Shown here piece by piece: positions 5,575 to 25,167 of a DNA stretch of 32,000 nt. The DNA lies in assembly GCF_008000775.2 (NCBI RefSeq), contig NZ_CP042905.2, positions 1,740,001 to 1,772,000 of the forward strand, given 5' to 3'. Source of the stretch: Promethearchaeum syntrophicum. Lineage in GTDB: Archaea; Asgardarchaeota; Lokiarchaeia; Sigyniarchaeales; Promethearchaeaceae. Under the pieces are notes generated by a model. It worked only from the letters and a program-made list of their open reading frames with translations. It ran no database searches and had not been told where the DNA came from. Position numbers and translations under genes: made by a program. Numbering within the stretch: position 1 is the stretch's first letter; each line of letters begins with the position of its first letter.

Positions 5575-6183
5575 TTAAATCAGTTTCTGCCTCAATATTT
5601 TCTGTATCATATCAATAAAAATTCTCTTAACATTTCTTAATTCACTTCTATCAATTGCTACCGCAGGATATACTATTCTAAATCCGAGAGCATCTTTATG
5701 AGCAAGAGGTAATCGCATAATCCTTCGAAACCGATCTTCTTTAACCACATCGGGAAGATCCCTTTTGTTTAATTGAATAAGAATTGGAATATTATCCCGA
5801 TGAATAAACGATTTGAGTTCCTCGAATGATCTGAGGTTGTTATCCATTTTATCCAACGAAGAATCCGCCACAAAAATCACCCCATCGGCATTTTGGAGAA
5901 CATATTCTCTTGTAGATAAAAATCGTTCCTGACCTGTAGTGGTCGCCACATTCACAATCACATCCAAGTTGAACGACGCCAACGAAAACTTAAAATGGAC
6001 CGAATCATTCCACAACGTTCTCTCATCGGTTGTAGCAATCGAAAAGCCATGGCTAATTTTGTAAGGGGCAAAGATTTCTTGCAGTCGTTCAAAATTGGTG
6101 GTTTTTCCTGCCTCGCCACAGCCCCAATACATAATTTTGAGTTGCATGAGTTTGGTTTTCGGAAGGGCTTTAGTCGAAATCAT
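5575..6183 (-). CDS. mglA: MglA-like small Ras-superfamily GTPase
   Basis: G1 is GCGEAGKTT. G3 is TTTGQE, with Thr replacing the usual Asp as in MglA TVPGQ. G4 is NKRD. The DGVIFVADSS and QLNKRDLP blocks resemble Myxococcus MglA as I recall it. The listed start 6204 is TTG; ATG 6183 or ATG 6147 (MQLKIMYWG...) is more plausible. Confidence 0.85.
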   Translation of the reverse strand: MISTKALPKTKLMQLKIMYWGCGEAGKTTNFERLQEIFAPYKISHGFSIATTDERTLWNDSVHFKFSLASFNLDVIVNVATTTGQERFLSTREYVLQNADGVIFVADSSLDKMDNNLRSFEELKSFIHRDNIPILIQLNKRDLPDVVKEDRFRRIMRLPLAHKDALGFRIVYPAVAIDRSELRNVKRIFIDMIQKILRQKLI

Positions 6184-6718
6184 CGTCAATCCCCCCCAGC
6201 ACAAATAGTTCGCGCTTCATTTGATTAATATGGCTCAAAAACTCGGCTTCGGACATTTTCATGGTTTTATTCATGTCAATATCCTGTTTTATCTTTTCCT
6301 TAATCCCGGCGGATGCTCTTTGCATTAACATCACAATAAGACCGATATTTATCTTGTTTTTCCCAATAACTATCAAGACAATTTCTTTAGGAAAAGGTTG
6401 CACATCCACATAACCAATCGAATGCACGAAGAACTTTTTATCATCAAAAATCAGAGTAGCGCGTTTTAGGTCACTGGCGGAAAAGAAATCCCGAGCTTGT
6501 TTTCCTATACCATACAGTGCTGCCCCAATTGCCCCGACATCCCAATAATTGATATCTGTGTCAAAAAAGGTATTGGTGGCAAGAACTTTGGCATCGGAGT
6601 CGGTGATCACCAACCCCATGAGTGAAGAAGTGTGTGAAAGTTGCCCGTATTTGAGTCTGATATCATCCAAGATTTTAGCAAGACCATTGCCTCTGATCTG
6701 ATCAGGAACTGTTTTCAT
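6170..6718 (-). CDS. mglB: Roadblock/LC7 domain protein (MglB-like) with a C-terminal extension
   Basis: LMGLVITDSDAKVLATN...GAIGAALYGIGKQARDFF...ATLIFDDKKFFVHSIG fits the Roadblock/LC7 pattern. It lies immediately upstream of the GTPase on the same strand. Confidence 0.7.
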   Translation of the reverse strand: MKTVPDQIRGNGLAKILDDIRLKYGQLSHTSSLMGLVITDSDAKVLATNTFFDTDINYWDVGAIGAALYGIGKQARDFFSASDLKRATLIFDDKKFFVHSIGYVDVQPFPKEIVLIVIGKNKINIGLIVMLMQRASAGIKEKIKQDIDMNKTMKMSEAEFLSHINQMKRELFVLGGIDDDFD

Positions 6719-6739
6719 GAAAAATTAGGACAATGGAAG

Positions 6740-6748
6740 TTTATAAAA
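6740..6748 (-). promoter_or_regulatory. TATA box for the Roadblock-GTPase bicistron
   Basis: The minus strand reads GCTTTTATAAAC, centred ~26 nt upstream of ATG 6718. Confidence 0.45.
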
Positions 6749-6750
6749 GC

Positions 6751-6760
6751 AAAAAAAAAA
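6751..6760 (-). terminator. T10 tract immediately after the 499-aa gene
   Basis: A10 on the + strand (T10 on the - strand) directly abuts the stop codon at 6761-6763. Confidence 0.45.
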
Positions 6761-8260
6761 TTAATCTTGGAATAATTTAAAGATTTTATTTTGGGAATCT
6801 CTCGTTCTGGCTCTCAACGATGTAATTAATTCAGGATTGAAGTCTCTTTCCCCATATTCTTTCTTTAGTGCGGTTAGTTTTTTTTGATATTCTCGATGGA
6901 AATTTCTGATTTCGGGGGATTTGGATTCATGGGCAAACATTTTTTCAAATTCTTTGGGAGACACAGATTGAGGCTTCTTTTCCACAGGTAAAATATGCGA
7001 CACCATCGGTTCTTTTTTGAGATGGGATCGTATGATTTCATCCTCCGCATATTGAAATAAATCCATTGTCTTGAATTCGGGAGACGCAAACATCGAGCAA
7101 ATATCAATAATTTGGGCATGTTTATCCAGTAAGTACTGCCCGATTTGAGATTTGGTTATATTTGCACTTTTGATTTCTTCCCTGATATAATATAAAAATA
7201 ACTTTTGGAAGAATTCCATCGGGATTTCGGTTTGCCATTGGTGGGTTCTGAGATAACAATATTTTTTTTCAGGAGTAGAAAAGGTATCGTGGGTAGGAAT
7301 GGTAATATCTCTTAATGAAAAGGAAAAGGCGTTAAACGTACTATCATTACTTAACAACCCCCATATTTCCTCATTGATTTGATCCTCTTTGTATATTTCA
7401 ATTTCTTCGATAATTGAGTCTTTTTTAATGATTGTGGATTCTATGGGTTCTTGTTGAAATGATACTTCATTTTTCTCTTGGTCTTTCGATTCAATTATAT
7501 GATTTTTTTCCTCTCTTTTTTCCTCTTGTGCTGGTTCTTCGGGATTTTTTGGCAAACTGCTGGGTTTTATGGTTTTTTTTGTATATTCGGGCAATTTTAC
7601 ATTATAATATTTCTCACAAATAGCACATATAGCCTTTTGTTCAAAAGTGGTCAAATCTTTACAGAAATCTTGATAATCTTTTTTTTGTATTCCGGGCAAG
7701 ATTTGAAACAAATCTCCTACTTTCTCCTCAATGGATGATAAATATTCCTTGAGGGCAAAAATCCCATCCGTTTTGAGCCTCGAAATAAGAGTGTCTTTTA
7801 TCCATTTATATGCTAAGGAATTAGCAGAGATTAACGATTTTGGGGTTAACTGCGAAATTTTTTTAATTTTTTTGTTAAACACCGCTATCTGCTGAAAATC
7901 GGAATAATCGATCTTTTGATCTTTTTCTAGCGCAAGAAATAAAATCTCAGGATATTTGATCACTTCATTCATTGATGCTTGAGATACATTCTTGAGGAGA
8001 AGGATCGATTTTTTTTCGCCGTCATCATACTGACTGAAATATCCTTCGAGATGCGCTGGATTGGTGATGTTATTCATATCGATTTCTTCGATAATATAAA
8101 ACACTCGCAATAATTCGAAGAGGCCATCCAATTTAGCACTATATTCGAAAGGGCGAATTACCACACTGCATCCTTTAATTAAAAGTAAATAGAGCAGTTT
8201 TTGGTGCACATAATCATAATTAAGTTCGGTTGAAGATTCCATCATCATTAGTAGTTCCAC
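6761..8260 (-). CDS. Hypothetical protein (499 aa) with an acidic central linker
   Basis: Long ORF with no family recognised. The central stretch is Glu/Lys-rich (PEEPAQEEKREEKNH...). The likely true start is ATG 8248, which sits 26 nt below a TATA box; the listed start 8260 is GTG. Confidence 0.7.
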   Translation of the reverse strand: MELLMMMESSTELNYDYVHQKLLYLLLIKGCSVVIRPFEYSAKLDGLFELLRVFYIIEEIDMNNITNPAHLEGYFSQYDDGEKKSILLLKNVSQASMNEVIKYPEILFLALEKDQKIDYSDFQQIAVFNKKIKKISQLTPKSLISANSLAYKWIKDTLISRLKTDGIFALKEYLSSIEEKVGDLFQILPGIQKKDYQDFCKDLTTFEQKAICAICEKYYNVKLPEYTKKTIKPSSLPKNPEEPAQEEKREEKNHIIESKDQEKNEVSFQQEPIESTIIKKDSIIEEIEIYKEDQINEEIWGLLSNDSTFNAFSFSLRDITIPTHDTFSTPEKKYCYLRTHQWQTEIPMEFFQKLFLYYIREEIKSANITKSQIGQYLLDKHAQIIDICSMFASPEFKTMDLFQYAEDEIIRSHLKKEPMVSHILPVEKKPQSVSPKEFEKMFAHESKSPEIRNFHREYQKKLTALKKEYGERDFNPELITSLRARTRDSQNKIFKLFQD

Positions 8261-10122: not shown

Positions 10123-13100
10123 TTATATGTGGGTTGATAAAATTTTCTGATATATTTTCTGTTTATTTTTGAAAATTATCCCACTCACACCCGCTCCAAC
10201 CGATCCAAGGGAAAGAATTGTTTCAATAATATAATTTCCGATTTTCGTCGCCTTCTTTTCAGGCACTATTTCCGATAAATCGAGGACATTAACGTAAAAA
10301 AACCCTGTTTCAGGATATTTTAGGTAATATTTTCCATCAGAGGTAGAAAAGTGATACGTATAGTTTCCAATATCAAGATCCAGATCATATTTGAAAATTT
10401 TATTTTTTGCATCATTTCCGTTGAGAGCGTGCATCGAATAAGTGGCTCCATTAATAGTTAGGTTGACATATTCGGCGGAGTTCTCTTGATTATCCGAATA
10501 CGATATCAGAAATTCAAAGTGATTTTCAACATTCGATAAAGTCTCACTATGTAAAATTGGAGGCGTATCCCCAAGGAAAAGAAAACGTGTCGAAATATTT
10601 TCCAAAAAATCAAAATTGAAATCCCACACTAGGGTATAGTTTTGATTTTGGTGCAGGTGGTCGGATATATCACAATTCCAATTTATCACCTCCTGTTGGT
10701 GATCAACCGCCATAGCCCCAACTTGATAAAAAGCTATAAAATTAGCTTCATCATCATATAAATAGAGTTCGGGGATTACTTTGGAGGCCAAAGATTCGGG
10801 GCATTCGACTGATAACTGCGACGCCACCGTATCTCCATTCGATATTATTTCTGCATTTCTGAAAAAAGGAATAGAAACGTCTACTGAAAAGGGATACGAG
10901 TAATTGGTTTCTCTAAACGTGAAATCAAAGGATATCCCCCAAGAGTAGGGATCAAATTCATCGAATTGGGGCATCACTTCACAAGCCGCCATAGATCCCA
11001 AAGAAGCCCAATTAGTAAAATCGGTGTCGTAGCCTCTAATACTCAAGTTATCTACCGAGATCACGGAAGAGATGGAGCTAAATTGTGCGAGATATGTATA
11101 ACTTTCCCCCAAGATTTGATTTGGCGGGATATCCATGTACACCTTGATATGGCCATCTTTAAGTAGTTGGGAAACAAACTTCACATCATCTTCAGGATAA
11201 TGATCTTGGGTTATAATGTATTGGATTAGATCCCGTATTTGTACATGCGACGTTTCAGAAATTAAATCGACATAAGAACATTCCATTTTATCCATTAATA
11301 CTAATAACTCGGTCTTTTCTTGGATTGAACAAGCATCCCATTCATTTTCGAATGCAAACACTAAATAATTTTTCAATTTTTCGGCATTAATGCCATTGCC
11401 CCCGAGAATTTCTTCGATAGACACAACATATTTTAAGGCTTGAAATCTCCCAATATTTTTATTTTCAATTGACTCAGAACAATTCACATACCAATAATCA
11501 CCGTCCTCCATGATGAACTGTTCACAATATGAAAGAATTGAACTAATCTCTGGTAACGTATAATAATCATAGAGGTCATTCAAAACATCGTAATTTAGTA
11601 GAAATTGTTGGGATTGAAGGGCATAAAATGTAGATTCGAGATTCCCGCACACCATTTCTTCAGGTGAATTACTAAAAAAACCTTCGGAAGTTAATTTGCC
11701 ATGAATCCACCAGATAAAATCATCGTAATCCGCTCCAGCAGCAGCGGCAAAGTTTTCTAGCAATCCGAACTCATTCAGAAGACTAAGAGAAAAATAATTC
11801 GTGGCTATCGGATAATATGTCCATTCATTCCAATTTCGCATAATTTTATAACTTTGATCCTGCACGTTAGTTGAAATATTTCTCAGATCGCCGAAATAGG
11901 TGGCAAACTGTCTGGACATAACCAGATCAAAAATCTGACTCTCATTGATTCCAGCATATTTGAGCGATTTAAACTTTAGATAATCCCCTTTCGCCGAGTT
12001 CCAGATATTTGATATATATGTTCCGCCTCCTTTTTCGGTCAGAAAGGAATCATAATAATCAATATATTTAGACTCATCCACCAAATTCCACACGCCTATA
12101 TTGGTGAGATAGTTCACGATTAAAAATTGCGAAAACAGATCATCCCCAGGAACGTCTGATGCCCAATAAAAATAATTATATTCCCGATCCAATCTTGTCT
12201 GGTCAAGCAGATTTGCCGAAATTAAGGTATTTTGGCAATTGTATATATCGGGAAATTGTGCTTCTGCCTCTAAAATTCTAATACAATCCCCCAAAATAGC
12301 GGTTCCGTAGTAGGTGATGATATCTGGGGATGCTTTATCATTCCATTGACTGTAAAAACAGTGAGTACTCGGATTGTTTAATCCATTATCCAACACAAAA
12401 TTAATAAAATTATCTTTAACTCCAGAAAAATCCCCCTCAATCATTTCAATCGTGTTTAATGCCAACCACGACGCATAGAAGAATTCCCAACCCACAATTA
12501 CATCTTCGGAATATTCACTAAAGGCTCCATTTCCGAAAGGAAGGATTTCCAGTGATCTTTGTCTACTCGCAATAAAATTCCCAATTACATTTTTTTGAAA
12601 AACAGAAAAGATAGTTGCATCAAAATCGTTGAGAGCCAATAACGCTTCGACAGAATAATAGGTTTCTAATAATGTAGAATTTGGTGAATATAAGCTTCCA
12701 AACCCTCCATCCACATTTTGCGTTCCCCAAATACCAGAAATCCAATTCGAAACCTGTCCCCCAGAAAAAGCAGCGAGGCGATCACATTTTTTTAACACGA
12801 CCAACGCCATTTCATGGGTGATTTCAGGGGTATAAGGGGCCAATAGAAGTTCTCTTCCGTCGGGATAGCCTTCATTATAATAGGTATAGTTAATATTTTC
12901 TTCGAATACTTCCGTCTGGGCATTATAGTGACTGGTCAGATAGTCCAAAATTTTATCTGCGTGGAGGGCGAGGCGACTTGGATCGATGTCATAGAGCGTT
13001 GACACAACATAATACGTAGCGATAATGGAGGGAGGTCGATCGTAAATAATGTTATCATTTTCTAAATATTCGTAAAAATCGGTGATGATTTCGGAATTAT

Positions 13101-13332
13101 CTAGCAGGTCGGGATTCGGAAGTGATTGAAAAATAATATTTTCTCCTGTTACGTCGCTCGGTAGGGGAAATTTAAGTATGTCATTTTCGGTTGAATTGTA
13201 CGGATAGTTTGGTTCGGATGATTCCAAAAGATTATATTCGGATCCAGCAAGATTTCCACCCATAAAAATATTCCACCCAAATACCAAAAAACATACAATG
13301 AGGATTTTTTTTTTTAGATGATGATTGTTCAT
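10123..13332 (-). CDS. Large membrane-anchored surface protein with prenyltransferase/terpene-cyclase-like alpha-alpha repeats
   Basis: It has an N-terminal signal/anchor (KKILIVCFLVFGWNIFMGG) and a C-terminal TM (ILSLGSVGAGVSGIIF) followed by a basic tail. Repeats such as GTQNVDGGFGSLYSPNSTLLETYYSVEALLAL fit the QxxDGGF/W toroid-repeat pattern. Confidence 0.75.
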   Translation of the reverse strand: MNNHHLKKKILIVCFLVFGWNIFMGGNLAGSEYNLLESSEPNYPYNSTENDILKFPLPSDVTGENIIFQSLPNPDLLDNSEIITDFYEYLENDNIIYDRPPSIIATYYVVSTLYDIDPSRLALHADKILDYLTSHYNAQTEVFEENINYTYYNEGYPDGRELLLAPYTPEITHEMALVVLKKCDRLAAFSGGQVSNWISGIWGTQNVDGGFGSLYSPNSTLLETYYSVEALLALNDFDATIFSVFQKNVIGNFIASRQRSLEILPFGNGAFSEYSEDVIVGWEFFYASWLALNTIEMIEGDFSGVKDNFINFVLDNGLNNPSTHCFYSQWNDKASPDIITYYGTAILGDCIRILEAEAQFPDIYNCQNTLISANLLDQTRLDREYNYFYWASDVPGDDLFSQFLIVNYLTNIGVWNLVDESKYIDYYDSFLTEKGGGTYISNIWNSAKGDYLKFKSLKYAGINESQIFDLVMSRQFATYFGDLRNISTNVQDQSYKIMRNWNEWTYYPIATNYFSLSLLNEFGLLENFAAAAGADYDDFIWWIHGKLTSEGFFSNSPEEMVCGNLESTFYALQSQQFLLNYDVLNDLYDYYTLPEISSILSYCEQFIMEDGDYWYVNCSESIENKNIGRFQALKYVVSIEEILGGNGINAEKLKNYLVFAFENEWDACSIQEKTELLVLMDKMECSYVDLISETSHVQIRDLIQYIITQDHYPEDDVKFVSQLLKDGHIKVYMDIPPNQILGESYTYLAQFSSISSVISVDNLSIRGYDTDFTNWASLGSMAACEVMPQFDEFDPYSWGISFDFTFRETNYSYPFSVDVSIPFFRNAEIISNGDTVASQLSVECPESLASKVIPELYLYDDEANFIAFYQVGAMAVDHQQEVINWNCDISDHLHQNQNYTLVWDFNFDFLENISTRFLFLGDTPPILHSETLSNVENHFEFLISYSDNQENSAEYVNLTINGATYSMHALNGNDAKNKIFKYDLDLDIGNYTYHFSTSDGKYYLKYPETGFFYVNVLDLSEIVPEKKATKIGNYIIETILSLGSVGAGVSGIIFKNKQKIYQKILSTHI

Positions 13333-13350
13333 AGGAGAAAAATATCTTAG

Positions 13351-13402: not shown

Positions 13403-13410
13403 TTTTAATA
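13403..13410 (+). promoter_or_regulatory. TATA-like box for the 88-aa gene
   Basis: TTTTAATA lies ~30 nt upstream of ATG 13437. Confidence 0.3.
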
Positions 13411-13436
13411 GATAAGACAAGGAAGCTTACTCCCCT

Positions 13437-13703
13437 ATGATTAAAAAATTATCAATCGAAGTCGAAAAAGGCAAATTCACGGAATATCTCTTCGATGAAT
13501 CGAAATTATATAGGTTTCAAGATCTCCCTACCGAAGCTCAGGTAGAAATTTTAACTGCGGTACAGATTCTTTACAATTTAAGACTGATTCCGGAGGACGT
13601 CTTCAGAGATAAATATTTACACTTAATCGAGGAACACAGCGTTTTTCTGCATATGATGGATGATCTTGCAGACACCGGGGCTAAACCCTCGAACAACTCC
13701 TGA
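13437..13703 (+). CDS. Hypothetical protein (88 aa)
   Basis: ORF with an upstream TATA-like element. No motif recognised. Confidence 0.45.
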   Translation: MIKKLSIEVEKGKFTEYLFDESKLYRFQDLPTEAQVEILTAVQILYNLRLIPEDVFRDKYLHLIEEHSVFLHMMDDLADTGAKPSNNS

Positions 13704-13756
13704 CATATCTCAGATAGATAACATCGTATTTAGAGGTGCAATAATGTTTTTTTTGC

Positions 13757-13765
13757 TTTTATAAA
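13757..13765 (+). promoter_or_regulatory. TATA box for the 13787-16662 operon
   Basis: GCTTTTATAAAC (the same 12-mer as at the Roadblock promoter) is centred 26 nt upstream of ATG 13787. Confidence 0.45.
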
Positions 13766-13786
13766 CAGATACGCAGTATTATCTTT

Positions 13787-15019
13787 ATGCGAAACCCCGT
13801 CAAAGTGGAAATTACGGCTCTGCTAATCATCTCTAGTATGTTATTGCTAACCTTGTCAAACTGTATTATTTTTAGTGGTTCCGTGCAAGATACCGACGAA
13901 ATGGATAATACCGATACAGCCATTTACCCATCACTTCTTTATGATTCCGTCGAATTTTTTCCCGAAGGGAGCAATGTTCTTACTTTAAACCATTCCTTTC
14001 AAAAAGACTGGATCTATTACTTCTCCTTTGAATCTTACGTCCCTTTCTCAGATATTTTTACATTGGATGTCTTCTGTCAAACGCCTGCCAGTCGTAATTA
14101 TCATTTCTTTGATTATAATATCTCCATTGAAAATGATATTACTAAAATTTACTTTGAATACGGGGCAACCGAATCGGGGGATTATCTTATCACTATCGAG
14201 GTCACCACCTCCCAAAATATCAATCTTCATATCTTTCTCGAAGAATATATGCCTTTAGATGCTTATTATTCCAAATTTAACACCATTCCGCTGAACGAAA
14301 GCAGCTTATTTTCGGATATTCATCAATATTCGCTGTTAAAAAACGACATGGAATATGAATATCCTGTGAAAGATGATGTGGCGTACAAATTTAATTTTTT
14401 TCGGGTAAATCCGATAAGCCTTACGGATATCACCGAAAATCTCTTTGAAAATCCCACGGTGGAAATGAAGGTAACCTTAGATGAAATCGAATACGAAATA
14501 TATCGCACCATTCCTACTCTTGATTATTCTCTGTATGGAAATGTTGAAAATGAGGGCTTTTTTGATTTAGAGCGGAATTTTATCAATGATACATTCACCG
14601 AACGGTTTGGAGCTCATTGCACGGGAAATTTAACCATCGATATTACTCTCGAAGGCTTTATTCCATTTGATCTCAATTTTGCGTTTTTAGTATGGGAAGT
14701 CAGCGACATAGGAAATGGGACGGATGGAGTGGGCGAAACCGATAATAGCACTATTCCCAACCCCTTTGATAGTGACGATACAGAATTATATAATAAGACT
14801 TTAGCAAATACTTTAGATTCATGGTTAGCAAGTATCGGGTTTTTCATTGAAAGTAACTGGTGGACGATGGTTATTGTGGTAGGGGCTTTTTTAATTTTCA
14901 CGCTCATCAATGGCAAATACAAATTCGTATTCAAATCTCAAATCAACAAATTCAAAGATCGCAGTGGCAGTGATGTGTACGATATGAGGGAAGAAACTCT
15001 CCAGGAGGCTACGAATTAA
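13787..15019 (+). CDS. Membrane-anchored extracellular protein (signal anchor plus C-terminal TM)
   Basis: N-terminal hydrophobic segment ITALLIISSMLLLTLSNC, multiple N-x-S/T sequons, and C-terminal TM WWTMVIVVGAFLIFTLI. Confidence 0.7.
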   Translation: MRNPVKVEITALLIISSMLLLTLSNCIIFSGSVQDTDEMDNTDTAIYPSLLYDSVEFFPEGSNVLTLNHSFQKDWIYYFSFESYVPFSDIFTLDVFCQTPASRNYHFFDYNISIENDITKIYFEYGATESGDYLITIEVTTSQNINLHIFLEEYMPLDAYYSKFNTIPLNESSLFSDIHQYSLLKNDMEYEYPVKDDVAYKFNFFRVNPISLTDITENLFENPTVEMKVTLDEIEYEIYRTIPTLDYSLYGNVENEGFFDLERNFINDTFTERFGAHCTGNLTIDITLEGFIPFDLNFAFLVWEVSDIGNGTDGVGETDNSTIPNPFDSDDTELYNKTLANTLDSWLASIGFFIESNWWTMVIVVGAFLIFTLINGKYKFVFKSQINKFKDRSGSDVYDMREETLQEATN

Positions 15020-15904
15020 ATGGGGTTCTTTCTCAATATGGTAATTGTTTTTATCGTAGGCAAAGCAATAGTTAAACTTTTTACTATGATCGTGTTCAGG
15101 GTGCGATTCCTAAGATCTCCTCTCCGTAGGATCTTACGCATCGGGGTAATATTTCATGAACTGAGCCATTTTGTTATTGCAAAAATGTTATTCATCCCGG
15201 TAAGGTTTTCCGATATTAACTTCCATACAAAAGACGGAGGAGGGGTAGTGACTGTTTTTATTACTGAAGAATTTACCAAAAGGATCAGTTTTCTTAAAGA
15301 TTTATTGATTGCTGTCGCCCCACTTTGGGTAGGAAACTGTGTTATCATGGAGCTCTATCATATCTTTTTCACGACCGATGCAATAGGGCTCCAAATTGTG
15401 TCTGTCTTATTCACGGTTATTATTTTACTCGTGTGTATCCCGTCCCCCTCCGATATGAAAAATTTAGTCAATACAATATTTTTCAAGCCCTATGTGGCTA
15501 TGAAGCAAATTATTTTCCTAGTGATATCTTTCTTGATATATAATCTTTATTTCGATTTCTTCTATCAATTCGCGCCCATGTATCCCTATCTCTTTGAATT
15601 TCTTATGTTACTAGTGATAGTTGGGAGTTTGGAGATATTCTTCGTGATTTTCAAGTTTGTCATGATTAAGCTTTTTTCCATCACGGCGAACAAACCTATC
15701 GGATTTTATAAAGGGGGGTCAGGGAATGTTAGGGAAATGTTTCCATCGAGAAGACAAAGAAGGAAAAATCGAAAAATGTCCCGTTCAGAGTTATTTACCC
15801 TTTTACCTTATGATGATGAAACCGCAGCGGAAGAATTTGCCCAAGCAATGATTGAAAACAATGCCATGATGATAGATATTGAAAACGCCGAGGAAGAAAA
15901 ATGA
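15020..15904 (+). CDS. Polytopic membrane protein with an HExxH motif (putative intramembrane or membrane-embedded zinc metalloprotease)
   Basis: ATG 15020 directly abuts the upstream TAA. It contains VIFHELSHFVIAKM, several hydrophobic helices and a charged C-terminal tail. Confidence 0.55.
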   Translation: MGFFLNMVIVFIVGKAIVKLFTMIVFRVRFLRSPLRRILRIGVIFHELSHFVIAKMLFIPVRFSDINFHTKDGGGVVTVFITEEFTKRISFLKDLLIAVAPLWVGNCVIMELYHIFFTTDAIGLQIVSVLFTVIILLVCIPSPSDMKNLVNTIFFKPYVAMKQIIFLVISFLIYNLYFDFFYQFAPMYPYLFEFLMLLVIVGSLEIFFVIFKFVMIKLFSITANKPIGFYKGGSGNVREMFPSRRQRRKNRKMSRSELFTLLPYDDETAAEEFAQAMIENNAMMIDIENAEEEK

Positions 15905-16662
15905 GTCACAAAGACCAATTCAAAAAAAACCCTAAAATATTCATTCATCCTGCTTACCCGATTTTTTTGGAGGGTGTCTTTAGATATGCAAAACAGCAAG
16001 AAATAAAAATAATTTTGAGTGAAAAAGTCGGAGATGCTGTTGATCTGCCCAACCTAAGAAAAAAAATGGGGCTGATTGAAATTTCTGATAATGTAGCTGT
16101 ATTAATACTAACGAAAAACTCCCTTCCTAACGAAATTGCCGATTTTGGTGAGTTCAAGAATTTTCTCCTAGGGTTTTCTGAATCTTACGCATCTCCCATT
16201 ATACTTCTGCAAGGATATCCGAAATGTCTGGAGGGCAAAGATCCCAAAATAGTTTTAGCGATCCAGGGAACTTTCATGAAATTATTTTTAGATGAAGGCG
16301 TCGGAGTTTTACCTACCCGATCCCTTTTGGATACAGCACTTTGTTTAAGGAGTGTTGCCAAACGGGTACAAATTATTGATAAACCCCCATCTCTAGCACG
16401 AATCAAACCAAAATTTTCTAAATCGATTGATGCTCAACACTTTTTTTTGGAAGGATTAATGGTATCAGGACCGAAAACTTCGCTTAATTTAAGTGATAAA
16501 TTTGACAGTCTGTTTGATGTAATTAAAGGAATACAGGAATCCCAAGTCATTTTTACGAAAACGGGGAATCCCAAAGGAGTTATTGGTCCGATTGAGGATA
16601 TAGAGGGTAGCAGTATTGAATTTGTTCGCCAAAACAAGATTATGCTTTTTGATGAATTATAA
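15901..16662 (+). CDS. XPF/ERCC4-family nuclease-like protein with a degenerate catalytic motif plus (HhH)2-like C-terminus
   Basis: Its start overlaps the upstream stop (ATGA at 15901). The layout parallels short archaeal XPF: KVGDAV (GDY-like), VAVLILTKNSLP in place of VAVERKxxxD, PIILLQGYP (like PILLVEG), DTALCLRSVAKR, then GPKTSLNLSDKFDSLFDV (HhH-like). Confidence 0.5.
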   Translation: MSHKDQFKKNPKIFIHPAYPIFLEGVFRYAKQQEIKIILSEKVGDAVDLPNLRKKMGLIEISDNVAVLILTKNSLPNEIADFGEFKNFLLGFSESYASPIILLQGYPKCLEGKDPKIVLAIQGTFMKLFLDEGVGVLPTRSLLDTALCLRSVAKRVQIIDKPPSLARIKPKFSKSIDAQHFFLEGLMVSGPKTSLNLSDKFDSLFDVIKGIQESQVIFTKTGNPKGVIGPIEDIEGSSIEFVRQNKIMLFDEL

Positions 16663-16717: not shown

Positions 16718-17260
16718 GTGAATTATATGGAATGGCATGAATGGGTTCTTTGGATAATTGCAGTGTTGGGTTTTCTCCTCTCATTAATAAATGGCATTTA
16801 TAACATAAAAAAATCAACACCACGCTTAAGAATCACGTTTGAGGCGAAAGATTCAAAAATGATAATATTGAAAAACTTAAGTGATGAGATTTTTATCATT
16901 AGAACATTAAAATTTATTTTATACAAAAAAAAATATAATTATTATCTATTTCCAGTGAATGGTGATTTTACATTTAGTAGTTTTAGCATTCCTCCAAAAA
17001 AAGTGAATTATAATGATGTACATGATTTCTATGAATTGAATAAATATATTAAAACTCAAAAATTGAAATATCCAATAAAATACAAAATAGAAGCATTGGA
17101 TGATTCAGATAAAAAATATTACTCGAAAACGAGAATTCTAATATCATCCGATGAAGAAAAGTATGATTTAGATGATAGATTATTTCATTCCTTTTTCACT
17201 GCTCAATTTCGGGTTTTTTTCTTGAGGATAAAAAATTATTTAGAAAAATATAAAAAATGA
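16718..17260 (+). CDS. Hypothetical N-terminally membrane-anchored protein in a very AT-rich islet
   Basis: TM segment WVLWIIAVLGFLLSLINGI. The probable start is ATG 16727 rather than GTG 16718. No family recognised. Confidence 0.45.
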   Translation: MNYMEWHEWVLWIIAVLGFLLSLINGIYNIKKSTPRLRITFEAKDSKMIILKNLSDEIFIIRTLKFILYKKKYNYYLFPVNGDFTFSSFSIPPKKVNYNDVHDFYELNKYIKTQKLKYPIKYKIEALDDSDKKYYSKTRILISSDEEKYDLDDRLFHSFFTAQFRVFFLRIKNYLEKYKK

Positions 17261-17446: not shown

Positions 17447-20400
17447 TCAAACCATACTTATTATGAAATACTCAATCCGATTAATCAATTTAAGAAGATT
17501 TTTTTCTTTAGTTGAGTCGGTTTCTTTAATCCATTGGTATCTCTCCCGAAATTTATCTATAAGTCCATCGGTTTGTGGATTGTTTTCAATTTTTTCCATA
17601 GCTTTTTCCCACCCCGCTTTAAGAAATTCATACGATTCTTTGAATTCCCCTTTTTCATATAGCATCCTGCAAGGAACTATGATTTCGCTCAGTTCGAGGT
17701 CAAATTCGTCCATCCATTCATCATTAGGGATTTTTTGTGAAGGGGGATTTTTTGGGGGAATAGTCGCAGGTAACACGGTAGGATCTTTCATTGGTTCCCT
17801 TTCCTGGATAACCGAATCGTCAGGAATAATGATCAGATTATCTTCGGACTGATCGAATTCATCTTCCTTAATACAATCTCGGGCTTTCACGGTGAGTTTA
17901 TACCCCGTGATCTCGAAACTTTTCCCGCCTACTGTCTTTTCTTCTACCAAATAGCCTAATTTTCTAAGATTGTCAAATATCCCCATAATTGATTTCTGGG
18001 TAGCTGCAAGTTCTCCATGGGAATTTTCCGCAAACAATTCACTGAGATGGGTAACGATTTGATCCTTTGTCAGATAGGGCAACTGGTCCAATTTAAGGAC
18101 ACTACTTCTGAGAAAAAGCAGCAGATTCTTATTAATGTGGGTGTCAGGAAAATCAGATTCTAAAAGGGTTTTGGGTTGGGTGATTTCCTCTGCATCGAGC
18201 AGTTGCGGAGGAGTTAATTGGAAATCGTGGATTTTCGTTGCGCTAATTCTGGTCATGTGAGGAGATTCAAAATACTTTGCCAAATTAAACTGGAAGACAT
18301 ACGGGGTGATATATTTCGGTCTGAGCACAATACATTTATCGGGATCAATGGTGGACAAATAATGGGATTGATAGGACACTTTTCTAGACGATCCTTGTAA
18401 ATGTTGGATATTGGTAAAATTTTCATCAAAATTCATAAACCCGTTAAGAATTCTTAGATTTGATTCCATCTGAGTCCGAAAGATAAATCTGTTCTTAAAA
18501 AGATTCAATACTGTGGGGTGGATTTCACTAATATTGGTTCCTGCTCCTACTAAGATATGCTGTTGTTTAATAAGTTGGAAAAGTGTGGAGTTAACCTGTG
18601 TATTTTGACGCATTTCGATTCTATTATTAAAAAGAATATCAAGCGCGGGAAGGACTATAGTTCTCGGAATTCTTTTTTGATTTTTGATCTCATCCAAATC
18701 CATTTCATAGATATATTGATATTGGGCTAGAAAGGCTTGAATAAACAGATTCTTTATATTATTGTCGTTTAAGATCTCCAAATTAATGATGAGGGTGGAA
18801 GCATTATCGGTTACGCCATCAAAGGGAATCCATTTTTGGATCGGGGTATCAAATGTCTTAACGAGAAAATCTTTTTGCAGCATATTCAAATCCGCATAGA
18901 CGGGATTTTGGTTTTTATAGTAATTTTTAATCCCATCCCCTTCAATGGAGATTTTATCACATACAGCCGAAATGGTAATATGGGTAGTATGGTCCACCGA
19001 TCCCCATGCGGATTTAAGGAGGGCTAATTGCCCATCGTGGTAGTGGAATACGCGCCCAAACACATCAATGATAGACGAAATATAGGATATGAAGGTTGGC
19101 CCTCGTTGATTATGAGGGAGGTCAAACAGTTCAATCCCAATATTTTCTCCCGCGGTTAAATACGTAATATTATTCACTGTGTTGTGTTTTTCGAGATGAC
19201 CAACCAAATGTTTCCAGGTCCCATCCCAATCAAATATTAGACAAGGAAATCGATGGGCTAAAAGCTCCGCCACACACCGAATTAATCCTTTTTGGGTATT
19301 TTTGTATGACTCTCCTAAGAAAAGGACATTTTCCTGTAATTCATTAAATGATATGCCTCCTGGGGTTTCGAGTGATATATTTTCAGGATTAAACGCATGT
19401 CCAAAAATAATTTCATCTTGAAGAAGGGGGGTAGAAAACTCCCCAGCGTAGTTTATCGGTAAAAATTTATGGATTTCTTCGGGAAGGGCGATAAACGGGA
19501 CCAGGGAAATGCCCGTTGTAAAATGGAGATTTAATAGGGAATTAAACGTGGAATACAGGCGCGCTTTGGTTAAATATTGATATATGATATTTGGTTTAAT
19601 AGACACGATTCCACAATTGGGAAATGCCATTTCGAACAGAGGCAAAAACGTATTCTGCAGGATTTTTGAATTCGTGATTAAATCCTTATCAGAGACTTCG
19701 ACCACATTCTGGTCTCTTACCATCCCGATCGAAAAGATTGGTTGGAAAAAATAAAACCCGCAATTTTGTCTTTCCAGCGAATTTCGTAAATGAGGTTTTT
19801 CTGACCATTTCTCCCAAAAATCACTAGATAATAATTGTTTAAACCGATTCATAGAACTGATCCGACGGGTATGAAATTGGATGGACACCGAGAAATTTCC
19901 AGATACAACATGATGAAGTAAAGATCTGTAAAATTTGACTTGATTAAACAAAAACGCTTTATTGAACGTGGTCATGCTGTAGTGCAGTTTTGAATATATC
20001 TTCTTCTTAAAATAATCATAAAAATGCAGACTTTTTCCCAATTTATGATAGAGAAATTCCCCTGAGGGAAACATATCAATCATGCTAAAATTTGCATCAT
20101 GAAATTCTAAGAAGTTGTTCCACCAGAAGTTAAGAACCATTAGAAGACATAAAATAAGAGACAAGAAAATCATAATAAAATATAGAATTCTGTTGTCGAT
20201 GCGGTATGTTAAGTACCACAAAACCCCTAAATTTCCCAAAAACCCCAGAATGGGGCGAATCCAAAGAATCCACCCTTTTTGATTTGGAGGCGAATTTAAT
20301 ATAGAATCTTTTTTAATGTGTTCATATCTTTTTCCTGTAATTGAACCTCGCAACGAATTAATTAATTCACCCCCAAATAAAGCGGAAAATTTGAAATGGG

Positions 20401-21151
20401 CGAAATTGGTTTCCAGAACGTTTAAAATCGAAATATAACTTTGCTTCATTGTATATAATAAGTTATCTATGGTGTGTTTAGAGGGAAATCGATAGGTTCT
20501 CGTGATGAAAATCGTATATTCAAACACCGTCTGAGCATCTCTATTTACTGTCTCGTTTTTTAAATTTTTTATTCTATCCCCGTAAATTGAATTCATATTT
20601 GACGTATCCGCTTCCACATTCTTGAGATCAATTTGAAAAGTCAGCGGAATATTCGTCTTTAATGAATAGAGAACTCGGAGGAAATTCTCAAAATTTGATT
20701 GGATATGGAGCGCGGTAGATCTGAGAGCAAGCCCCATGACCGCCACGACTTTATGATTGGATCGATTGGAAAAGAGCATAAGATTACCATTTTTCGGATG
20801 GACGGGTTGAGATGGATGTTTAATTACCGATCGAGCAGGATCTAACGAAATTTCGGCAATATACGTACGGAGAGAAGGGAGATGGACTCTCTGTATACTC
20901 CGTCCAAAGAATTTCGGAGAAAAATGAAGCGATTGATCGGAGAAAAATACAAATAAATTAAGTATGATCAAAACTCCCGACATCCCTGCCAATGTGGCGG
21001 GTTTGATATGAGGAAGAGCTAAGGCATATATCCAAATAATTCCAATCAAAGATAATAAATACCCAAATATGGATTTTCGTATCGGGGATTTAAAATAATC
21101 TTTATATTCTAACGGATCATAATTCAGGGTTTTTTTAGGAATTTTCTCCAT
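17447..21151 (-). CDS. 1234-aa membrane protein with a FtsK/HerA/VirB4-like domain lacking canonical Walker A, and a C-terminal winged-helix-like segment
   Basis: There are two TM hairpins (aa ~28-70 and ~293-344). ENVLFLGESYKNTQKGLIRCVAELL..CLIFDWDGTW and HILVGAGTNISEIHPTVLNLFKNRFIFRT follow the HerA/VirB4 P-loop layout, but no GK[ST] is present. LRKLGYLVEEKTVGGKSFEITGYKLT is wHTH-like. The CDS call is solid; the domain call is tentative. Confidence 0.8.
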   Translation of the reverse strand: MEKIPKKTLNYDPLEYKDYFKSPIRKSIFGYLLSLIGIIWIYALALPHIKPATLAGMSGVLIILNLFVFFSDQSLHFSPKFFGRSIQRVHLPSLRTYIAEISLDPARSVIKHPSQPVHPKNGNLMLFSNRSNHKVVAVMGLALRSTALHIQSNFENFLRVLYSLKTNIPLTFQIDLKNVEADTSNMNSIYGDRIKNLKNETVNRDAQTVFEYTIFITRTYRFPSKHTIDNLLYTMKQSYISILNVLETNFAHFKFSALFGGELINSLRGSITGKRYEHIKKDSILNSPPNQKGWILWIRPILGFLGNLGVLWYLTYRIDNRILYFIMIFLSLILCLLMVLNFWWNNFLEFHDANFSMIDMFPSGEFLYHKLGKSLHFYDYFKKKIYSKLHYSMTTFNKAFLFNQVKFYRSLLHHVVSGNFSVSIQFHTRRISSMNRFKQLLSSDFWEKWSEKPHLRNSLERQNCGFYFFQPIFSIGMVRDQNVVEVSDKDLITNSKILQNTFLPLFEMAFPNCGIVSIKPNIIYQYLTKARLYSTFNSLLNLHFTTGISLVPFIALPEEIHKFLPINYAGEFSTPLLQDEIIFGHAFNPENISLETPGGISFNELQENVLFLGESYKNTQKGLIRCVAELLAHRFPCLIFDWDGTWKHLVGHLEKHNTVNNITYLTAGENIGIELFDLPHNQRGPTFISYISSIIDVFGRVFHYHDGQLALLKSAWGSVDHTTHITISAVCDKISIEGDGIKNYYKNQNPVYADLNMLQKDFLVKTFDTPIQKWIPFDGVTDNASTLIINLEILNDNNIKNLFIQAFLAQYQYIYEMDLDEIKNQKRIPRTIVLPALDILFNNRIEMRQNTQVNSTLFQLIKQQHILVGAGTNISEIHPTVLNLFKNRFIFRTQMESNLRILNGFMNFDENFTNIQHLQGSSRKVSYQSHYLSTIDPDKCIVLRPKYITPYVFQFNLAKYFESPHMTRISATKIHDFQLTPPQLLDAEEITQPKTLLESDFPDTHINKNLLLFLRSSVLKLDQLPYLTKDQIVTHLSELFAENSHGELAATQKSIMGIFDNLRKLGYLVEEKTVGGKSFEITGYKLTVKARDCIKEDEFDQSEDNLIIIPDDSVIQEREPMKDPTVLPATIPPKNPPSQKIPNDEWMDEFDLELSEIIVPCRMLYEKGEFKESYEFLKAGWEKAMEKIENNPQTDGLIDKFRERYQWIKETDSTKEKNLLKLINRIEYFIISMV

Positions 21152-21170
21152 AACAACATTGATAGCCCAT

Positions 21171-21208
21171 CCTTATAAAAACAAAAAAAATCAATGCGAT
21201 TTTAAATA
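21171..21208. promoter_or_regulatory. Back-to-back divergent TATA boxes
   Basis: The minus strand reads TTTTTATAAGG (21171-21182), 25 nt from ATG 21151. The plus strand reads TTTTAAATA (21200-21208), 29 nt from ATG 21233. Confidence 0.45.
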
Positions 21209-21232
21209 GAAACAATTTTAATAGTTTTTATC

Positions 21233-23029
21233 ATGGATCCCTTCTACGTAAAAGTGGATGAAATTAAACACACTGTCGAGGAAAAGAACTATGAATTATC
21301 GTTAAGCCTCTATTCGGTATTAATCGAGACCTTCACGGAACCCTATCATGAATTTGAGATAAAACGCCTCAATCTAGATAAGCTCATGGCGACAGTATCG
21401 AAAAAATATTTTAAGAGGCAATTAGATGAAAATATCACATATTGCCAAGACATGATTAAAAATAATGATGTTGAGCAAGCTAAAATTTATTTGGATAAAG
21501 CCAAGAAAAGTTTAGGGAATTTAAATAGCAAATTCATTATATCTCAAAAAATAAAATTAAGAAAATTAAAAAAGGAAATCGCGATATTAGAAACCCCGCT
21601 TGATGTGTATCCTGAACCCGACTTAGACGAGTGTATTGATGATAAGCTTGTTCAAACGATTATTCCCGAATTTGATGAAAAATATTATAAGGCCACCTCG
21701 GAGTTGGTGGATGGATCGCTCAAACAAAATGGCTATTCCCGAATTAAAATCATACCAGAATCATTAATATTGGAGAATATTTATCGGTCTTTCGACCATC
21801 TCTATTATAAAATTCATAACGATCCTGAAGACGAACCGGCATTACTCTCGTTAATTTTCGTAAAGGTGGAATCCTCAAAGGGCAATATCAATTTAAGATA
21901 TCCCGAAGTTGATTATAAACCCATGGAACAAATGGGAAGTGCCGAAAGACACGTGATTCTCAATGATGTGGTGCATTTTCCGATTAGGATATTTAAACAT
22001 CTACTAACCACCATGGCCCAAAAAGACTACGAATCTTTTCGGATCACCACGGAAATATTTGAGGATTTACTCGTCAAAGTCTTTCCCCATGCAGAAATCC
22101 TTCAACATCCTCTTCGTGTAAAAAGTGGAGCTAAACAAATGGAAATCGATGCCCATGGTATAATTCTCTTAAAAAAATCCCTCTATCAAACTCAACTTCC
22201 AGGGCTACGATCGGATCATATCTATTTTCTAACGCAAGCTAACCTGCAACCCTTCATCGATTTTGAGGATAAAAAATATTTCGCATATATTTCAGCCAAA
22301 AAAGAGACCATCGAAAATTATGATTCCCCCAAACAAAAACACGGATTCTTCTCCCGCCAGTCCAAAATAGGATTTATCATTACCCCCCTCTTATTTATAT
22401 CTGCGCTGGCGGCGTTCTTGAACCAAGAACTCTTAACCCCGTTTCTGATTTTTGATTCAGTGTTAGCGATATTGACGGTGGGGCATGGAATATTCCAAAA
22501 AATTTTCGGGGAGGCAGAGTTATACAGGATAAGTGAATGGTGTATTCTTTCCCGCGACATCCGAAAATGGGACAAAGTCTTCGGGTTTCTTGCCGATGAA
22601 CATACAATAAATCTAATAAGTGCAGAATGTTCGAATTTCGGCAATCATCAAACATTAAGGGATCCCAAGAAGTTTACCCTCCCCTTTCTTCATAATTTTT
22701 CCCTGAAGATGTTCTTAAAAAGAAAAAAACTTCAAAAATATTACATAGATCCTGCAACAACGAAGATTAAGACCAAAAGCAAAGAATTCGGGCAAAAAAT
22801 CAAAGAGAAAACGATCAAAATATCAACCACATTAAAAAAGAAACCATCAAGATCTCCGCATCCCCCTAAGTTCAAAATAAAACACGTAAGAGACAGAGGG
22901 AAATCCACCACATTTTCTTCAACGAAACCTAAAATGCACATCAAGAAAAGAAGGAAGTTACCCTCCCCGTCTCCTCTATCGAGAAATTCAATCAAATTAA
23001 CATCGATCAATTCGTTTTTGGAGGATTAA
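21233..23029 (+). CDS. Hypothetical 598-aa protein with a central TM hairpin and a Lys/Pro-rich basic tail
   Basis: Hydrophobic GFIITPLLFISALAAFL...FLIFDSVLAILTVGHGIF. The tail is KKKPSRSPHPPKFKIKHVRDRGK. The segment FEDLLVKVFP...AKQMEIDAHGIILLKKS loosely resembles a restriction-endonuclease-like core, which is weak evidence. Confidence 0.75.
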   Translation: MDPFYVKVDEIKHTVEEKNYELSLSLYSVLIETFTEPYHEFEIKRLNLDKLMATVSKKYFKRQLDENITYCQDMIKNNDVEQAKIYLDKAKKSLGNLNSKFIISQKIKLRKLKKEIAILETPLDVYPEPDLDECIDDKLVQTIIPEFDEKYYKATSELVDGSLKQNGYSRIKIIPESLILENIYRSFDHLYYKIHNDPEDEPALLSLIFVKVESSKGNINLRYPEVDYKPMEQMGSAERHVILNDVVHFPIRIFKHLLTTMAQKDYESFRITTEIFEDLLVKVFPHAEILQHPLRVKSGAKQMEIDAHGIILLKKSLYQTQLPGLRSDHIYFLTQANLQPFIDFEDKKYFAYISAKKETIENYDSPKQKHGFFSRQSKIGFIITPLLFISALAAFLNQELLTPFLIFDSVLAILTVGHGIFQKIFGEAELYRISEWCILSRDIRKWDKVFGFLADEHTINLISAECSNFGNHQTLRDPKKFTLPFLHNFSLKMFLKRKKLQKYYIDPATTKIKTKSKEFGQKIKEKTIKISTTLKKKPSRSPHPPKFKIKHVRDRGKSTTFSSTKPKMHIKKRRKLPSPSPLSRNSIKLTSINSFLED

Positions 23030-23032
23030 ATT

Positions 23033-23185
23033 ATGATATGTGAAAAAATGAGACGATATGAGCCCCCAACCGTTGTCCAATGCCCGTATTGCAAACAGCG
23101 AATTTTTGTGCGCAATCCTGGTCTTCTTTACTATTCTTGTAATAAATGTGGGCGGAACTTTTCTTCCTTCGGAAATATCTATTAG
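23033..23185 (+). CDS. 50-aa zinc-ribbon protein (below the ORF-track size cutoff)
   Basis: GGAGGA at 23020-25 lies 7 nt before ATG 23033. It translates to MICEKMRRYEPPTVVQCPYCKQRIFVRNPGLLYYSCNKCGRNFSSFGNIY, with CPxC...CxxCG. Confidence 0.5.
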   Translation: MICEKMRRYEPPTVVQCPYCKQRIFVRNPGLLYYSCNKCGRNFSSFGNIY

Positions 23186-23360
23186 AAATTACATTTCCTA
23201 TGATCAGAATAATCAAATAAAGAAAAAATACAAAAATCAAGGATAGAAAGAACGAAAAAATTTAGTCAGCTCCAAGGTAATTCTTATTCTCAATTTCTTT
23301 CCTTCTTTTCTTAATAAAAACGATAACATAATTAGTAAGTGAAACACTTAATAGTTGATT

Positions 23361-23370
23361 TTTTAAATAT
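23361..23370 (+). promoter_or_regulatory. TATA box
   Basis: TTTTAAATAT is centred ~25 nt upstream of ATG 23390. Confidence 0.4.
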
Positions 23371-23389
23371 TTTGTTAGGGCAAAATATC

Positions 23390-25147: not shown

Positions 25148-25167
25148 GAAAGAAGAAGAAATCAATG

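Follow-up and report, generated by a model that had tools for sequence, protein, structure and literature searches.

A 1234-amino-acid (aa) membrane protein of the archaeon Promethearchaeum syntrophicum MK-D1 contains a domain that profile comparisons identify as a homologue of the HerA ATPase core, and from which the catalytic motifs appear to have been lost. The protein, referred to here as the giant protein, is encoded within a stretch of 32,000 nucleotides (nt) of contig NZ_CP042905.2 (assembly GCF_008000775.2; positions 1,740,001-1,772,000, forward strand), which we call the window. Its gene is divergent from that of a 598-aa protein, which is followed by a 50-aa open reading frame (ORF) with the features of a zinc ribbon. 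A first-pass annotation of the window had described an FtsK/HerA/VirB4-like layout in the giant protein, lacking the Walker A motif and the acidic pair of Walker B. Profile-profile comparison and PDB profile matches indicate that this layout reflects real homology, closest to HerA, and both motifs were found to be missing in the whole family rather than here alone.

A HerA-like domain without catalytic motifs

An alignment of 35 family members was used for the motif, hydropathy and profile work. Comparison of the resulting profile with PDB sequences gave three top matches, all to HerA proteins and all over the same stretch (aa 600-960, approximately): the NTPase of the SIR2-HerA complex (8j4u, chain 8j4u_M; E-value 0.006), Sulfolobus HerA (4d2i_A; E-value 0.0087) and YjgR (11kk_A; E-value 0.65). 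No FtsK, SpoIIIE, VirB4, VirD4 or EccC chain was recovered at E-values up to 10, and Pfam gave no VirB4 or VirD4 match in any of the 35 members. The family was also compared by hhalign with two HerA alignments, the first consisting of 21 archaeal fragments and the second including in addition nine full-length HerA-like proteins from viral contigs, with an intact GNTGSGKS motif. The probability was 91.6% for the first (E-value 8e-7, 165 columns) and 90.8% for the second (E-value 1.2e-6), rising to 94.4% (E-value 9e-8) for the ATPase-domain sub-alignment alone. Control comparisons with reversed or column-shuffled HerA alignments gave probabilities of 0.3% or less and E-values of 0.2 or worse. 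These results indicate that aa 620-960, approximately, are homologous to the HerA ATPase core.

The alignment with HerA is collinear, comprising five blocks in the same order. In the first block, RFPCLIFDWDGTW of the giant protein pairs with NARFIILDPNGEY of HerA; CLIFDWDGTW of the giant protein aligns to FIILDPNGEY. The second block pairs IVLPALDILF with AVIEEAHVFL, placing VLPALD opposite the Walker B sequence VIEEAH. FQLIKQQ pairs with REGRKFG in the third block, GTNI with SQRP in the fourth, and YLSTIDPDKCIVLRPKYITPYVFQFN with LSSLDVGEAIIIGKIVKLPAVVKID in the fifth. The EEAH, REGRKFG and SQRP motifs are invariant in the HerA alignment and are all replaced in the giant family. The Walker A position of the giant protein reads LFLGESYKNTQKG. 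A motif table revealed GK[ST] at the P-loop position in 0 of 35 members, and a pattern scan found a correctly placed Walker A motif (G-x4-GK[ST]) in 0 of 64 representatives. Across the 35 members the Walker B position has the consensus I-P-x-h-D/E-h-h-F, and the SQRP and REGRKFG positions show no conservation. Because GK[ST] is absent from the 35 members and Walker A from the 64 representatives, the pseudo-ATPase reading applies family-wide; since the canonical catalytic residues are missing throughout, the giant protein most likely does not hydrolyse ATP.

A word-indexed search yielded three close relatives of the giant protein (64-67% identity). An exhaustive profile search of 1.84 billion representatives extended the family to 65 representative clusters at E-values of 0.001 or below, 18 of them at 1e-30 or below. 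Most members are 1150-1340 aa in length and match end to end, with 16-30% identity to the window protein for those outside the genus. The family falls into two groups: that of the window protein, and a larger group with a consensus of its own, to which P0030 and similar members belong. Every source-named member is a hypothetical protein of Promethearchaeota, Promethearchaeia or Lokiarchaeota. When one genome of each GTDB species was scanned with an 8-member alignment, 6 loci were detected, and a metagenome scan gave 1 locus; in the species scan the family was found in Promethearchaeum species, Lokiarchaeum ossiferum B35 and two metagenome-assembled genomes, one labelled Promethearchaeota and the other an unclassified 'uncultured archaeon'. 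Single-protein searches of Pfam, NCBIfam, PADLOC and PDB sequences were uninformative for the giant and the 598-aa protein alike, and literature searches by accession, by locus tag and for HerA in Asgard archaea returned nothing on the giant protein. By these searches, the giant protein represents a previously undescribed family, so far of Promethearchaeota (Asgard archaea) only, which the profile evidence places as an inactivated, membrane-anchored and domain-duplicated branch of the HerA clade covered by no curated model. In two of the related loci, which are denoted here by L numbers, the giant gene reads as two ORFs: in L002 (8972-12682) these encode 300 and 925 aa, and tblastn aligns straight through, and in L019 (1439-3453) they encode 383 and 288 aa. 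This may reflect an in-frame stop or an assembly error, or the gene may genuinely be split after the first copy of the duplicated domain.

Membrane architecture and the divergent partner genes

Hydropathy analysis bore out the transmembrane (TM) hairpins of the first-pass annotation, two in the giant protein and one in the 598-aa protein. Both hydrophobic hairpin regions of the giant protein recur in nearly all of the 35 aligned members, and the protein is predicted to be anchored in the membrane through them. An internal duplication had also been suspected, and comparison of family sub-alignments by hhalign (aa 75-300 against aa 352-600) detected it with a probability of 98.3% (E-value 2.5e-14, 149 columns), with controls at 0.2% or less. 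The duplication was visible only by profile-profile comparison and not by BLAST self-comparison of the giant protein. The duplicated unit, which we call domain X, is approximately 170 aa long and occurs once after each TM hairpin, and the two copies have the motifs PF..i.F, IPfTyQ and NFpHfK..L.G.eLi in common. No relation of domain X to HerA N-terminal domains or to the intact ATPase of L025 (described below) was detected, and a PDB profile search gave no fold; in a comparison aimed at the HAS barrel, the domain X sub-alignments scored approximately 1% or less against full-length HerA-like proteins.

Beyond the HerA-like domain, the AlphaFold2 (AF2) model, poor overall, contains a segment with the order helix-helix-helix-strand-strand and a predicted local distance difference test (pLDDT) score of 55-75. 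The best Foldseek matches of this segment were PadR/VanR/LmrR/ORC/RQC winged helices, at E-values of 0.03 or worse; a 20-sequence profile matched the Nse3 winged helix at 0.1, and Pfam DUF4194 was matched at 0.076. Of the winged-helix tail described in the first pass, the pattern of three helices and a β-hairpin is therefore present in the model, while all similarity scores remained below threshold, and a winged helix in the C-terminal part is plausible. The protein ends in a predicted bundle of four helices (pLDDT 50-76), strongly conserved among close homologues and preceded by an acidic, proline-rich linker.

The ORFs, their coordinates and the TATA-like boxes between them were found as first described. 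The start codons of the giant and 598-aa genes are separated by 81 nt. Within this spacer the minus-strand box TTATAAA (21173-21179) lies approximately 25 nt from the ATG of the giant gene, and the plus-strand box TTTTAAATA (21200-21208) approximately 29 nt from that of the 598-aa gene, a spacing that suggests leaderless or near-leaderless transcripts. Both boxes are kept in three Promethearchaeum relatives (L002, L014 and L015), and the plus-strand box is also kept in L021, the giant protein of which has 30% identity to that of the window. The genes are real, with homologues at 57-76% identity in related genomes and, for the giant protein, the divergent 65-cluster family. Rfam and tRNA scans of the window for RNA genes were empty.

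The 598-aa protein starts with a TPR-like helical bundle (aa 1-115), continues with a middle domain and a TM hairpin (aa 377-422), and has a basic tail; its net charge is +20 and its terminal motif is SINSFLED. Only aa 1-115 fold confidently by AF2, as a helical bundle with TPR domains as weak best matches. The protein has no Pfam, NCBIfam or PADLOC match, and the weak restriction-endonuclease-like segment proposed in the first pass has no support in these libraries; the candidate Asp of a PD-(D/E)xK motif is not kept in the probable remote homologues described below, in a low-confidence alignment.

Gene neighbourhoods were compared by clustering the proteins of 13 loci, to which later additions brought the total to 19. 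The 598-aa type is present in 7 of these and is clearly detectable only in Promethearchaeum and in one further lineage, L021, where a 788-aa homologue occupies the same divergent position beside the 30%-identity giant. In L020 and L027, which belong to the second subfamily, a 662-aa or 575-aa protein is encoded upstream of the giant gene on the same strand. These proteins have the same layout as the 598-aa protein, with a helical head, a middle domain containing hhKI..GN....DYK, a TM hairpin, a tail and a terminal SFLED or YLDD, and that of L027 starts with an HhH domain. Alignment by hhalign is collinear end to end but weak (probability 33%, E-value 4.6e-4), and they are probably remote homologues. 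A TM-hairpin protein is likewise the product of the divergently placed gene in L017 (L. ossiferum) and L022. The L022 protein gave a weak signal against the 598-aa protein (34%), and the upstream positional analogues in L017, L024, L019 and L018 gave no similarity signal to it.

Two further features of the 598-aa types were observed. The sequence S-I-N-S-F-[LM]-[ED]-D stands at their extreme C-terminus in both subfamilies (window 23006-23029; L020 1286-3274; L027 1849-3576; L021 5166-7532), and the TPR-like head of the 598-aa protein bears a weak resemblance to TPR clamps with affinity for acidic C-terminal peptides.

The 50-aa ORF starts 3 nt past the TAA of the 598-aa gene, with the sequence GGAGGA 8-13 nt upstream, and is probably translationally coupled to it, as first proposed. 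It is kept in L002 and L015 with 65-68% identity and all four Cys retained, and approximately half of the nucleotide changes fall at third codon positions, a coding-type pattern. Two CxxC knuckles, CPYC...C(N/P)KC, are kept in the three genomes, and the ORF matches Pfam Zn_Ribbon_TF with an E-value of 3e-5, below the gathering score. By its sequence the ORF is a zinc ribbon, for which membership in the TFIIB family specifically is not established. Beyond the window, L002 and L015, both Promethearchaeum loci, were the only ones in which it was found, and it is absent downstream of the L021 homologue. Of the system first proposed, the divergent pair together with the zinc ribbon, the 598-aa type thus recurs in L021 and probably in the second subfamily, whereas the zinc ribbon was found only in the genus and the most constant partners of the giant gene sit on the side opposite the 598-aa gene.

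The pair is flanked by a 180-aa ORF (16718-17260, +) and a 351-aa ORF (23339-24394, +) without counterpart in related loci, where the corresponding sites hold an EMP24_GP25L-like or DUF5655 gene, or nothing.

Conserved neighbours of the giant gene

The most constant neighbour is c1, found in 11 of the 19 loci and in both subfamilies. Its residues H46, E47, H50, S142 and D145 are invariant, it has a conserved PSxxD motif, and H46, E47, H50 and D145 lie in hydrophobic segments. Pfam matches to DUF3267, M50B and M50 were all below the gathering score, and the PDB match to an RseP-type protease had an E-value of 0.23; from these features c1 looks like a protease of the S2P/M50 type. In L023, L029 and L030 the start of c1 overlaps the stop of the giant gene. 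L029 and L030, which represent a divergent branch of the family, also have a canonical gene for Peptidase_M50 (703-742 aa) two genes upstream of the giant gene (L029 5601-7712; L030 6945-9173), besides the coupled downstream c1.

The second neighbour, c2, matches the NCBIfam Hef model (E-value 9e-11) and PDB entry 1j22 (E-value 0.0046). These scores support similarity to the XPF/Hef (ERCC4) nuclease fold, in which the catalytic ERK motif is here aligned to LTK. In 8 loci it adjoins the giant gene, which it precedes on the same strand in one of them (L018). In the window c1 and c2 form a tight operon with c4 (13787-16662, +): c4 ends at 15019, c1 starts at 15020, and c1 and c2 overlap by 4 nt. 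The very acidic c3 has a net charge of -89 and a weak match to the prenyltransferase alpha/alpha toroid, and directly follows the giant gene in L022 and c1 in L023. Both c3 and c4 are absent from several loci.

A module of an Arf/Ras-like GTPase, a roadblock protein and a 499-aa protein is also linked to the giant gene, and in L022 the genes for the giant protein, c3, the 499-aa protein, the roadblock protein and the GTPase form one tight same-strand array. A DENN-roadblock-Rab-like GTPase operon has been described in Asgard archaea (Liu et al., bioRxiv 10.1101/2020.10.19.343400). The window module is alike in combining a GTPase, a roadblock protein and a protein of approximately 500 aa, and probably represents that operon; a DENN domain in the 499-aa protein was not confirmed, and the searched text of the preprint mentions no HerA-like protein.

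Genes for DEAD/ResIII helicases and for a protein of approximately 100 aa also recur near giant genes. The latter is represented in the window by a 103-aa protein (1499-1810, +; CPIC...HGDPLH). Homologues occur close to the giant genes of L017, L020, L021 and L024, some of them next to a DEAD/ResIII helicase gene. An 804-aa protein (3053-5467, +) contains a SIR2_2 domain followed by many TPR repeats and has a homologue in only one other related locus (L019). A 411-aa protein (8446-9681, -) carries an N-terminal TFIIB-type zinc ribbon, with homologues beside giant genes in L024 and L026, and a 250-aa protein (24413-25165, -) shows weak similarity to TFIIB cyclin repeats. An ORF of more than 916 aa (29253-32000, +), with a signal-like N-terminus and a net charge of about -103, runs past the window end and probably encodes another surface protein.

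In L025 a 639-aa protein (13170-15089, +) with intact Walker A (GMPKTGKT) and Walker B (ICLDEAH) motifs is encoded two genes downstream of a subfamily-2 giant gene and its c1. This protein, possibly an active partner ATPase, was found in this one locus and has no significant similarity to the giant family.

Table 1 Positions of the genes, protein segments and spacer discussed in the text (window coordinates).
Feature	Coordinates	Strand	Description and evidence
Giant membrane pseudo-ATPase gene	17447..21151	-	1234 aa; ORF; 100% match to QEE16332.1, annotated hypothetical
TM hairpin 1	20936..21076	-	aa 26-72; hydropathy
Domain X copy 1	20351..20896	-	aa 86-267; hhalign
TM hairpin 2	20102..20254	-	aa about 300-350; hydropathy
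Domain X copy 2	19571..20089	-	aa 355-527; hhalign
HerA-like P-loop domain without catalytic motifs	18272..19354	-	aa about 600-960; profile comparison, motif table
Probable winged-helix segment	17879..18166	-	aa about 996-1091; AF2, Foldseek and profiles, all sub-threshold
C-terminal helical bundle	17450..17725	-	aa about 1143-1234; AF2 secondary structure
Divergent spacer with two TATA-like boxes	21152..21232		81 nt; sequence; putative promoter function
598-aa partner gene	21233..23029	+	ORF; DSAG12_02163, annotated hypothetical
50-aa four-Cys zinc-ribbon ORF	23033..23185	+	ORF listing; Pfam; conservation
c1, polytopic membrane protein with HExxH	15020..15904	+	294 aa; invariant residues, TM segments
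c2, Hef/XPF nuclease-domain-like protein	15901..16662	+	253 aa; NCBIfam Hef; PDB 1j22
c4, acidic surface protein	13787..15019	+	410 aa; signal-like N-terminus, C-terminal TM anchor; kept in 6 loci
c3, very acidic surface protein	10123..13332	-	1069 aa; signal-like N-terminus, C-terminal TM anchor
Arf/Ras-like GTPase, roadblock (MAPKK1_Int-like) and 499-aa protein module	5575..8260	-	Linked to giant gene in 5 loci

Proposed role and comparison with known systems

The giant gene is recurrently linked to c1, c2 and a gene for a 598-aa-type protein, despite rearrangements. We propose, as the most likely role and with about even odds, that the giant protein serves as a non-catalytic membrane scaffold and not as a motor. 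The ring-forming, partner-docking body of a HerA/FtsK-type protein would be retained as a scaffold on the cytoplasmic face of the membrane, most likely without ATP hydrolysis. The hairpins have basic residues next to them on the N-terminal and post-hairpin sides, a charge distribution that suggests that the soluble domains are all cytoplasmic. The scaffold would organise the products of the conserved neighbours: c1, whose gene often shows translational coupling to the giant gene; the 598-aa protein with its hairpin anchor; and c2, which is XPF-like but lacks ERK. Surface proteins and a small-GTPase module are encoded in the locus too.

Several observations weigh against this proposal. Pfam, NCBIfam and PADLOC recognise no HerA in the giant protein, nor do Pfam and PADLOC in the 35 members scanned singly, and the PDB E-values of the HerA matches are marginal. 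The Walker A strand lies outside the aligned region, with only the flanking helix and the FDWDGTW block aligned. The HerA assignment comes from sequence profiles, because both structure predictions failed with shallow alignments: with only 4-6 close homologues, the AF2 models reached a pLDDT of 34 for the giant protein and 43 for the 598-aa protein and were useless for fold, and Foldseek found no match below an E-value of 0.03 for either model. The loss of motifs does not formally rule out nucleotide binding. Finally, the linkage sample comprises just 19 loci, several of them short or closely related.

The tight coupling to the S2P-like c1 makes a proteolytic relationship a serious alternative or addition to the scaffold, with the giant protein as substrate or regulator. 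In a full scheme of regulated intramembrane proteolysis, c1 would cut the giant or the 598-aa hairpin protein, releasing a fragment with the winged helix or the basic tail to act on DNA or transcription, as for SREBP or anti-sigma factors. Such a scheme is in keeping with the invariant HExxH and conserved Asp of c1 in hydrophobic segments, with its sub-threshold M50, M50B and DUF3267 matches, and with its translational coupling to the giant gene in three loci, in two of which a canonical Peptidase_M50 gene lies upstream as well. Both candidate substrates have TM hairpins, and TFIIB-type zinc ribbons and a TFIIB-cyclin-like gene are nearby. The external loops of the hairpins consist of only a few residues, however, leaving little room for a site-1 cut, and a dead ATPase of 1200 aa would be an unusual factor to release; the winged helix is weakly supported, and c1 is only a putative protease. 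We consider proteolysis of this kind unlikely, while regarding it as deserving attention.

A further alternative, rather unlikely, is an envelope or secretion platform formed by a non-catalytic relative of the VirB4/VirD4/EccC-type membrane ATPases. By docking or gating, it would serve to export, anchor or process c3 and c4, while c1 trims their C-terminal anchors and the GTPase module regulates the process. Both c3 and c4 have a signal-like N-terminus, a C-terminal TM anchor and a strongly negative net charge, which would suit such a role, as would their continued linkage to the giant gene and the tight packing of the c4-c1-c2 operon. The PDB profile search, however, gave no VirB4, VirD4, FtsK or EccC similarity, c3 and c4 are missing from several loci, and the locus contains no energy source, except for the intact ATPase in L025.

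A more far-reaching reading, which we regard as distinctly improbable, is that an Asgard-specific machine has the giant family as its receptor in the membrane. The dead ring of HerA/FtsK type would be wired to the GTPase-roadblock module and be cut or gated by the S2P-like protease, and it would tether DNA or DNA-bound partners to the membrane or release them. Candidates for binding DNA are the winged helix, the basic tail and the HhH domains, one in c2 and one in the L027 partner. If true, the closest cultured relatives of eukaryotes would possess a prokaryotic counterpart of membrane-chromatin tethering or of SREBP-type signalling.

Two further alternatives concern the HerA-like domain of the proposed scaffold itself. 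It is very unlikely that the resemblance to HerA is a false positive and that aa 600-960 form an unrelated alpha/beta domain. The lack of a significant match in the sequence-to-profile libraries, PDB E-values of only 0.006-0.65 and an uninformative AF2 model would allow this; against it, three of the three top PDB matches are HerA over the same region, two independent HerA alignments give 91-94% probability compared with at most 0.3% for controls, and five motif blocks occur in the same order. There is an even slighter chance that the protein is an active NTPase with non-canonical residues, or the regulatory half of a pair with an active paralogue. The conserved acidic residue D838 (D or E in most members) follows the Walker B site at a distance of three positions, many members have a basic residue near the P-loop position, and in L025 the protein with intact Walker A and B motifs is encoded two genes downstream; yet no member keeps GK[ST], the acidic pair, SQRP or REGRKFG, and the L025 ATPase, present in one locus only, is not significantly similar to the family.

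An anti-virus defence island or domesticated mobile element of the SIR2-HerA or DUF4297-HerA type, to which the best PDB match and the SIR2_2-TPR gene, an HNH gene and, in relatives, the DEAD/ResIII helicases of the neighbourhood might point, is highly improbable because PADLOC finds nothing and the chromosomal context with cellular genes is stable, family similarity tracking taxonomy, unlike the patchy spread typical of defence genes; moreover, the SIR2-TPR gene is common to only two loci, and the ATPase that such systems require is dead.

P. syntrophicum and L. ossiferum are cultured reference organisms for the archaeal ancestry of eukaryotes, with a substantial part of the proteome annotated hypothetical. 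A large conserved hypothetical membrane protein of these organisms can now be placed in the HerA/FtsK superfamily, together with its predicted domain architecture and co-travelling genes. A membrane-anchored pseudo-enzyme coupled to an S2P-like protease, beside a GTPase-roadblock module, would offer a testable entry to Asgard membrane biology, regulated proteolysis or DNA-membrane contacts, and the family alignment could seed a Pfam or NCBIfam model, ending the orphan annotation.

Among known systems, archaeal HerA (4d2i) and YjgR (11kk) align collinearly with the giant protein over the C-terminal two thirds of the ATPase core, comprising the block after the P-loop helix (FDWDGTW versus LDPNGEY), the Walker B strand, the REGRKFG helix, the SQRP strand and the C-terminal L..L..GE...G....P..V strand pair. 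Archaeal HerA is a partner of NurA, Mre11 and Rad50. Like HerA, the giant gene adjoins a gene for a nuclease-fold protein, which is the XPF-like c2 and not NurA, and which lacks the ERK motif. Unlike HerA, the giant protein has no Walker A, EEAH, REGRKFG or SQRP motif and no detected HAS-barrel-like N-terminal domain; it is predicted to be membrane-anchored by its two TM hairpins, contains the duplicated domain X, and is 2.5 times longer. The HerA proteins of the SIR2-HerA and DUF4297-HerA systems (8j4u, 8su9 and related) include the best-scoring solved relative, which aligns from Walker B to the sensor region (E-value 0.006). The giant protein differs from these in the loss of catalytic motifs, in its predicted membrane attachment, and in having no PADLOC match and no conserved SIR2 or DUF4297 partner.

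In FtsK and SpoIIIE, a four-TM anchor at the N-terminus is followed by a long cytoplasmic linker, which leads to the P-loop domain (FtsK-HerA superfamily) and then to a winged-helix-like module at the C-terminus. The giant protein has a like domain order, with its candidate winged helix in the last position. The family profile recovered no FtsK or SpoIIIE chain, and in contrast to both, the giant protein lacks the motor motifs and has a duplicated globular domain as its linker. EccC/EssC of type VII secretion and VirD4/VirB4 of type IV secretion systems are membrane-anchored rings of the FtsK/HerA superfamily, in which some P-loop domains are non-catalytic docking or regulatory modules. To our knowledge these proteins always keep at least one active ATPase domain, whereas the only P-loop domain of the giant protein appears to be dead, and the PDB profile search found no sequence link to them. 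We know of no other FtsK-HerA family in which the catalytic motifs have been lost in every member; for non-catalytic P-loop modules in membrane-anchored rings, EccC/EssC and VirD4/VirB4 provide the precedent.

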